From Escherichia coli (GTDB lineage Bacteria > Pseudomonadota > Gammaproteobacteria > Enterobacterales > Enterobacteriaceae), in the NCBI RefSeq assembly GCF_003334385.1, contig NZ_QOWN01000205.1: DNA of 324 nt; one strand, 5' to 3'. The translations under genes were made by a program, and so were the position numbers. The notes under the pieces are model-generated. The model was given only the letters and a program-made list of their open reading frames with translations. It did no database searches and was not told the DNA's origin. Shown one piece after another: positions 1-93 of this stretch (the stretch's first letter is position 1; each line of letters opens with the position of its first letter).

Positions 1-51
1 AATCCCAATGGAGAATGTAAAGAAAAGATGCTTTCGTATATCGGTTTTTTA

Positions 52-70
52 AATGAAAACAGTTCTCATT
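52..70. repeat. 19-bp imperfect palindrome AATGAAAAC-a-GTTCTCATT (candidate operator)
   Basis: Seen directly in the sequence: 9-bp arms around a central A at position 61, pairing at 8 of 9 positions (A57 against C65 is the mismatch). It sits 24-42 nt upstream of the ATG at 94, inside the AT-rich leader. The inverted repeat itself is certain; the confidence given is for it being a functional protein-binding site. Confidence 0.3.
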
Positions 71-82
71 GTCAACCGTAAC

Positions 83-90
83 GGTAAGAA
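83..90 (+). promoter_or_regulatory. Putative ribosome-binding site for the 94..288 ORF
   Basis: GGTAAGAA: the TAAGAA portion at 85-90 matches TAAGGA of the Shine-Dalgarno consensus at 5 of 6 positions, with a 3-nt spacer (ACT) before ATG 94. The match is weak to moderate and the spacing is short but within the usable range. Confidence 0.35.
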
Positions 91-93
91 ACT

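Follow-up and report, generated by a model that had tools for sequence, protein, structure and literature searches.

Does the AT-rich spacer upstream of a prophage DUF1378 gene encode an Esr41-related small RNA on the opposite strand?

Does the AT-rich DNA that precedes a small prophage gene serve that gene, or does it belong to something else? We address this question for a window of 324 nt of Escherichia coli DNA (the window being the whole stretch analysed), in which an AT-rich segment, positions 1-93, lies directly 5′ of an open reading frame (ORF) at 94-288. A sequence-only reading had taken the low G+C content of this segment as a better fit to non-coding regulatory DNA than to the 3′ end of another gene, and had on that ground preferred a local promoter or operator to pure operon read-through.

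Genomic setting and composition of the spacer

The window shows 100% identity to five Shiga-toxin-type E. coli chromosomes, one match being at positions 172132-172455 of NZ_CP075632.1 (E. coli), and we analysed it within 16.3 kb of sequence around the NZ_CP075632.1 copy (locus L001, in which the window occupies 8001-8324). It lies within a lambdoid prophage carried by Shiga-toxin-type E. coli. On the plus strand, a Q-like antiterminator gene (phrog_79) is followed by three tRNAs, two STnc100-type RNAs, a sialate esterase gene of the SASA family (nanS-p type) that ends at L001 7954, a spacer of 139 nt (L001 7955-8093), and the genes for DUF1378, DUF826, holin, lysozyme, Rz and terminase. This gene order recurs in 305 phage records, mostly of Stx-converting phages, among them VT2-Sakai at 84% identity. 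The ORF encodes the DUF1378 protein, which matches PF07125 over all of the profile (residues 1-59 of 59, E=7.4e-35). The features of the window are collected in Table 1.

Table 1. Features assigned to the window (coordinates are window positions)
Feature	Position	Strand	Basis or remark
5′ half of predicted Esr41-like sRNA	1..42	-	Esr41 model alignment and module profile; start near 42-39
Conserved single-stranded core UUCUCCAU, candidate seed	8..15	-	Complementary to Shine-Dalgarno-type sequence
-10-like hexamer TAAAAA	46..51	-	A at -11, without the usual T at -7
Promoter spacer ATGAGAACTGTTTTCATT, 18 nt	52..69	-	Conserved as strongly as the -35 hexamer
-35 hexamer TTGACA, perfect consensus	70..75	-	Looser sigma-70 scan
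Leader and weak ribosome-binding region of DUF1378 gene	76..93	+	No strong Shine-Dalgarno visible
DUF1378 gene, 64 aa, hydrophobic N-terminal segment	94..288	+	Pfam PF07125, phrog_494, RefSeq annotation
DUF826 gene start, runs past window	314..324	+	RefSeq L001 8314-8604; phrog_311, E=2.7e-37

The step in composition that the sequence-only reading described is real and locally unusual. By exact count, the segment contains 31 G+C in 93 nt (33.3%) and the ORF 95 in 195 (48.7%), a contrast that is modest within the window itself (Fisher exact p=0.016), and the step counts as locally unusual because only 0.48% of the 93-nt windows in the late region (L001 4700-13200) have a G+C content of 33.3% or less; most of these begin at L001 7999-8024, which is the segment itself. 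The AT-rich zone covers only part of the spacer, whose average rises to 43.9% G+C because its first 46 nt, immediately to the left of the window, hold a GC-rich hairpin. That the segment is not the 3′ end of another gene was likewise borne out, the esterase stop codon lying 47 nt before the window.

On the plus strand, we found nothing in the spacer that could serve the ORF as a promoter or operator. The stricter of two sigma-70 scans, extended over the flanking DNA to L001 7500-9000, returned no plus-strand promoter, and the looser one, which was confined to sigma-70-type promoters and asked for at least 3/6 matches in the -35, an A at -11 and a spacer of 15-19 nt, returned no plus-strand candidate with at least 8/12 consensus matches in L001 7955-8100. 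This agrees with the earlier failure to see a convincing sigma-70 -35/-10 pair on that strand. A search for inverted repeats returned no operator-like palindrome in the spacer, the sole repeat being the stem of the hairpin described below as a terminator, and a plus-strand promoter or operator for DUF1378 was rejected on these grounds. The toxin, esterase and lysis genes of such phages are expressed from a late promoter with Q antitermination (PMC7547250, PMC10462455), and the mRNA of the DUF1378 ORF most likely arises in the same way, by Q-antiterminated late read-through and not from a promoter in the segment. This reading is drawn from the biology of the phage family.

A 14-codon plus-strand ORF (MENVKKRCFRISVF) at window 8-52 was also considered as a gene. 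It is preceded at a distance of 8 nt by GGAGG, a good Shine-Dalgarno sequence, at L001 7995-7999 on the strand of the late transcript, and it was rejected since it is not conserved in relatives, its counterpart being MEKK-stop in the type found in Sakai prophage Sp5 and altered by non-synonymous changes in the L143 type. This ORF is the mirror image of the UUCUCCAU core of the predicted RNA and not a gene, and the segment does not encode protein.

Several other features of the late region were observed in passing. Directly after the Q-like gene, a 2.4-kb AT-rich block on the opposite strand (L001 1003-3394, minus) carries genes for a hypothetical protein and a nucleoid-associated protein. The two tandem STnc100-type (PasD-like) RNA genes 5′ of the esterase lie at L001 5061-5266 and 5544-5753 on the plus strand (165.6 and 141.4 bits). 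Immediately beyond the second copy, the minus strand (L001 5754-5822) carries a terminator-like GCCCGCG..CGCGGGC-T6 element that falls below the AsxR and AgvB thresholds and resembles the convergent sRNA pairs of Tree et al. 2014. Finally, the gap between DUF826 and holin contains, 28 nt before the holin start codon and within the late operon, a 12-bp hairpin AGGGTCATCAGT..GCTGGTGGCCCT followed by TTTTGTTGTTG (L001 8614-8652, plus). This hairpin may be a terminator that Q overrides, or it may form the 3′ end of an RNA that comes from the DUF826 transcript.

The predicted minus-strand promoter and RNA

A promoter-like site is nevertheless present in the segment, so that the description of the segment as regulatory DNA stands in part; the site lies on the minus strand and points away from the ORF. 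It has the form TTGACA-18-TAAAAA, with 10/12 consensus matches. The stricter scan passed over it because its -10 hexamer lacks a T at -7, and a sister variant has TAGAAA at the same place. Sites with at least 10/12 matches number five in the 32.6 kb formed by both strands of L001, and only the minus-strand site has a perfect -35. The 18-nt promoter spacer has a mean column conservation of 0.97 across 44 distinct sequences that were chosen by their DUF1378 protein and not by the promoter. It is partly common to the esr41 promoter of E. coli O157:H7 (AACT.TTTT.A.T), in which the TAAAAA hexamer aligns with a TATATA/TTATAT region. Over window 74-93, 14 of 20 columns are invariant, and the leader of the DUF1378 gene doubles, on the minus strand, as the DNA that immediately precedes the predicted sRNA promoter.

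A match to the sigma-28 (FliA) consensus, TAAAGTTT-N11-GCCGATAA, was examined and set aside. It reads AACTGTTT-N11-ACCGATAT (window 61-34, minus) and overlaps the sigma-70-like promoter in this subtype only; its CCGATA part is missing from variants of the Sp5 and L187 types, so that we treat the match as probably due to chance. Esr41 has been reported to raise fliA and fliC expression.

From the geometry of the promoter and the mapped 5′ G of Esr41, we infer that the RNA would start near window 42-39. The predicted product of about 83 nt is read from right to left and leaves the window on its left side, ending about 40 nt further on at L001 ~7960. It ends in a strong intrinsic terminator (L001 7996-7960, minus) that reads on the DNA CCGCCAGC, a 13-nt loop, GCTGGCGG, C and T7, and on the RNA CCGCCAGC, the same 13-nt loop, GCUGGCGG, C and U7; the end lies 6-9 nt past the esterase stop codon. 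The stem is GC-rich, with eight perfect base pairs, and the U7 tract exists on the minus strand only; the plus-strand hairpin, having no U-run, should not stop late transcription. The composition of the spacer follows from this arrangement, as the DNA inside the window is AT-rich because it holds the promoter and an unstructured, U-rich RNA body, while the GC-rich terminator lies just outside.

The terminator hairpin is the one stable element of the predicted RNA and exactly what its centroid fold retains; the fold of the whole RNA is not unusually stable (z=-1.3). In variants the eighth pair of the stem changes from C-G to U-A or U-G and the seven core pairs are invariant, which is thin covariation in a sample gathered in part with patterns that required those seven pairs. 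RNAalifold returned the terminator as the only consensus structure, and single folds of the 5′ part disagree among variants. The UUCUCCAU core is retained in 14 of the 15 aligned variants, is present in Esr41 as ACAUUUUCUCCAUGGGG, and is unpaired, or weakly paired in the minimum free energy (MFE) structure, in most folds, with pairing in both the MFE and the centroid in variants L169 and L011. As Esr41 is reported to act at the ribosome-binding site of chuA (PMC9002310), the core is a candidate seed. The predicted RNA begins with a variable 5′ region, continues with a single-stranded, U-rich core that includes UUCUCCAU, and closes with the terminator hairpin and its poly-U tail, the same order of parts as in Hfq-dependent base-pairing sRNAs.

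Relation to Esr41 and to other prophage small RNAs

Esr41 (Rfam RF02676; EcOnc14), whose gene lies on the SpLE1 island of E. coli O157:H7, is an Hfq-binding sRNA expressed as an RNA of about 70 nt that represses chuA, cirA and bfr (PMC5286369), and its 3′ GC-rich palindrome and long poly(U) form its Hfq-binding module (PMC9387321). Rfam searched at curated thresholds reported nothing on the spacer. When E-value thresholds were used, Esr41 was the best of 4227 families on the site, on the minus strand and at full length, with the model aligning to L001 8034-7960 (minus) at 20.5 bits, far below the curated cut-off of 102. Relatives of the module reached 30.9 bits (the copy in Stx2 phage VT2-Sakai) and 26 bits (L103). 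The true esr41 locus of Sakai scored 108.6 bits and has a TTGACA 35 nt upstream of the RNA start. The Sakai Esr41 agrees with the model consensus base for base, and copies in different genomes share at least 95% identity, a uniformity that probably accounts for Rfam's very high cut-off.

A profile of promoter and RNA together, built from 32 distinct modules of the present type, identified the esr41 locus of E. coli O157 Sakai with nhmmer at E=1.8e-4 in 1.04 Mb, as its only significant match. The match is co-linear over model positions 1-113, which take in the -35 hexamer at one end and the terminator at the other. The RNA part by itself, searched as a covariance model (R1), reached Esr41 with 23 bits and E=0.003. 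When the esr41 locus and L001 were compared by pairwise BLAST, no match appeared; the flanks are unrelated, and the similarity of the modules needs a profile to be seen. In the alignment, ACAUU--CUCCAUUGGG-AUUACCUCCGCCAGC of the predicted window RNA stands opposite ACAUUUUCUCCAUGGGGUAUUCCCUCCGCCGGC of Esr41, and the two have a central segment ACAUU..CUCCAU.GGG.AUU.CCUCCGCC.GC in common, together with a TTGACA promoter in co-linear position with a similar spacer, a GC-rich terminator with a long U tail, and a similar length. The 3′ module typical of Esr41 is present on the minus strand as the 8-bp stem, C and U7 described above.

The two elements also differ. Neither of the 5′ hairpins of Esr41, the GAUGC/GCAUC hairpin and a second small one, is preserved in the window RNA, where both would contain non-standard pairs and where 5′ folds vary between variants; and modules of the window type score 20-31 bits against the cut-off of 102. 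Esr41 lies on SpLE1 near iha and ter, whereas the window module lies in a lambdoid late region beside esterase and DUF1378, and the latter is variable and often multi-copy, in contrast to the uniformity of Esr41. As Esr41 is encoded on SpLE1, the similarity was at first assumed to reflect a mere look-alike of the terminator, an explanation ruled out by the alignment and by a profile match that spans the promoter. We are highly confident that the DNA module is a homologue of esr41, and on the basis of these comparisons it is a divergent esr41 paralogue, promoter included. A literature search for Esr41 homologues or an Esr41 family found no paper.

Other small RNAs occupy the same slot in related prophages. 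PasA (85 nt) and PasC (79 nt) of EPEC E2348/69 are encoded opposite to, and directly after, the esterase gene (PMC8550237, Table S6), and both are Northern-confirmed and Hfq-dependent (PMC8550237), while EcOnc51 and EcOnc52 of O157 Sakai are Hfq crosslinking peaks after an esterase gene (PMC4104026, Table S2). In a preprint (bioRxiv 10.64898/2026.05.13.724894), Zhu, Shabalina and Storz set out an 'esterase-PasA-holin-lysozyme' arrangement and mention Esr41 Rfam hits near PasD without following them up. On inspection, these Pas and EcOnc loci have the same position and orientation as the window module: each lies in the slot between esterase and lysis genes, is convergent, has its own TTGACA and ends in a terminator whose U-run abuts the esterase stop. 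Their size of 79-85 nt is like that of the window RNA, and alignment shows in common the TTGACA, a CTGT in the promoter spacer and a GCCAG...CTGGC terminator followed by a T-run. They differ in the RNA body, which has no significant sequence or profile similarity to the window RNA, and in the next gene, which is a holin or an IS element and not DUF1378.

It is quite improbable that the minus-strand element belongs to this PasA/PasC/EcOnc51-52 family instead of the Esr41 lineage. Slot, orientation and the common motifs speak for such a placement; the profiles do not, since a profile of 33 modules of the PasA/PasC/EcOnc52 type matched the window locus at E=2.3 and the reverse search gave E of at least 0.37. 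The covariance model R1 gave E of at least 0.058 on the Pas loci against 0.003 for Esr41, and the Rfam Esr41 model had no match on them. PasA and PasC are thus best described as working analogues, possibly distant relatives, and not as the family of the window element; a deeper common origin of the Esr41-like and Pas/EcOnc cassettes is possible.

The window variant is not in the EcOnc list for strain Sakai, and no expression data were found for it. The list is restricted to peaks that either are antisense to a coding region or lie at a distance of more than 100 bp from any, a filter that would presumably exclude a short spacer, so that absence from it says little. The 'anti-sRNAs' AsxR and AgvB (Tree et al. 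2014) are comparable in being short, head-on to the late transcript, placed at insertion-tolerant sites after the late promoter, and composed of a conserved 3′ part and a variable 5′ part. They differ in sequence and in lying after stx or an STnc100-type RNA and not after an esterase gene, and AsxR is found separately in the VT2-Sakai locus (L005 1316-1368).

Two tandem convergent sRNA genes were observed in the esterase-holin spacer of EPEC E2348/69 PP2 (L003 2355-2660, minus) and of Sakai Sp12 (L007 1395-1700, plus). In both, PasA/EcOnc51 is followed by an EcOnc52-type copy, each with its own TTGACA and terminator, an arrangement that would explain the 236-nt 'minor' PasA species ending at the esterase stop.

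Variation of the slot, proposed function and implications

To see how far the layout is kept, we used 79 loci for which the DUF1378 protein was the sole basis of selection, so that the promoter played no part in the choice. Every one of the 79 has a convergent terminator after the esterase gene and a -35-like hexamer before that terminator; the hexamer is TTGACA in 73 and TTGACT in three, and 72 match a strict terminator pattern. The three loci without TTGAC (viral, L113-L192 set) carry in the same slot an unrelated-looking module with the same layout, TTGAAA-17-TACAAA ... GGCCAGCGCC ... GGCGCTGGCT-T6. The esterase/DUF1378 slot appears to take interchangeable sRNA cassettes. Variants of the window module differ mainly in the length of the -10 A-run, the first ~20 nt of the RNA and the terminator loop. 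Across the 44 distinct sequences, column conservation in the intergenic spacer is 0.89-0.97, which equals that of codon positions 1 and 2 (0.95-0.96) and exceeds that of position 3 (0.91). These values are supporting rather than decisive, as the sequences are closely related, the sample is shallow and conservation discriminates weakly. It falls to 0.64 in the esterase 3′ end, which is mosaic, and this drop marks a mosaic junction at the terminator T-run.

At this junction, in L001 (7934-7960) as in homologous loci, the sRNA module is abutted exactly at its T-run by esterase 3′ ends of at least three unrelated kinds (..GCCGGTTATGATGA.., ..ATCATGCCGCGG.. and ..AGCAATTATGCGGC..), which marks a recombination junction at which the sRNA travels with the DUF1378 side and not with the esterase. 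Of 5,426 complete E. coli genomes, 305 contain the 126-nt module, which occupies 436 places in all and as many as six in one genome, a count that leaves out more divergent types such as the Sp5 copy, and no annotated feature lies under it among the matches listed. True Esr41 is present in 695 genomes and is nearly invariant.

Based on the promoter, terminator and profile evidence, we consider it likely that the minus strand of window 1-75 holds the promoter and the first half of an sRNA gene that is related to Esr41, convergent and unannotated, and probable that the module is an expressed, functional sRNA. In the mechanism that we propose, sigma-70 RNA polymerase would bind TTGACA (75-70), the 18-nt spacer and TAAAAA (51-46), and transcription would start near window 42-39, run leftward, head-on to the phage late genes, and stop at the intrinsic terminator just past the esterase stop codon, giving a product of about 83 nt. 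In a lysogen, where the late genes would be silent, the sRNA would be made from its own promoter, bind Hfq through its terminator and U-tail, and act in trans on host mRNAs via the UUCUCCAU core, probably at ribosome-binding sites; this trans action is modelled on that of Esr41 with chuA, cirA and bfr. Once the prophage is induced, late transcription modified by Q would cross the sRNA promoter and probably silence it by occlusion. The sRNA would be perfectly antisense to the spacer of the late mRNA and could also affect the late transcript, from which the DUF1378 ORF would be expressed.

Two other readings of the segment have to be weighed against this proposal. The segment could be a plain AT-rich spacer of the late operon in which the Esr41-like module survives as a decaying relic that is no longer transcribed. 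AT-richness is indeed usual for E. coli spacers and translation-start regions, the -10 is imperfect, the contrast within the window reaches only p=0.016, the overall fold is unremarkable, and the relatives are so similar to one another that their conservation is no proof of selection. We regard such a relic as unlikely, given that promoter, spacer and terminator are intact in 76 of the 79 loci and that the other three carry a different, complete-looking module, that the spacer is conserved more than neighbouring third codon positions, that the module is kept while the esterase end is mosaic (0.64), and that expression has been reported both for the homologue Esr41 and for PasA and PasC, the analogues in position.

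The other reading, close to the sequence-only one, is that a plus-strand promoter or operator in 1-93 drives DUF1378 and the lysis genes independently of the upstream transcript. It can point to a segment that is non-coding, AT-rich and directly 5′ of the ORF, and we consider it highly improbable: the sigma-70-type scans returned no plus-strand candidate with at least 8/12 matches in the spacer and none in L001 7500-9000, there is no operator-like palindrome, and the gene sits inside a run of late genes on the same strand. AT-richness at this locus does not speak for a local promoter or operator of the ORF.

Our preferred reading adds a predicted, unannotated prophage-borne sRNA gene of Esr41 type in the slot used by PasA and PasC. 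Reviews describe Esr41 as EHEC-specific and SpLE1-encoded, and its reported effects concern the uptake of haem and siderophores, sensitivity to colicins, motility and the expression of the LEE. More tentatively, Esr41 may be one of a large, fast-diversifying set of head-on sRNA cassettes at lambdoid esterase/lysis junctions, including those of Shiga-toxin phages such as VT2-Sakai, and with no greater certainty we suggest that within this set the promoter, the UUCUCCAU core and the terminator are kept while the 5′ domain is swapped. If so, hundreds of pathogenic E. coli carry from one to several unannotated Esr41 paralogues, which could add to or rewire the control that Esr41 exerts over iron uptake, motility and the LEE, and each cassette, being antisense to the late transcript, could link lysogeny to lysis-gene expression. 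On a practical level, the AT-rich spacer 5′ of a phage gene can be a gene of the opposite strand, which should be borne in mind during annotation. If the paralogues are expressed, studies of esr41 deletions may have been buffered by them, strains without SpLE1 could still have Esr41-type regulation, and Shiga-toxin phages would bring an Esr41-type regulator together with the toxin.
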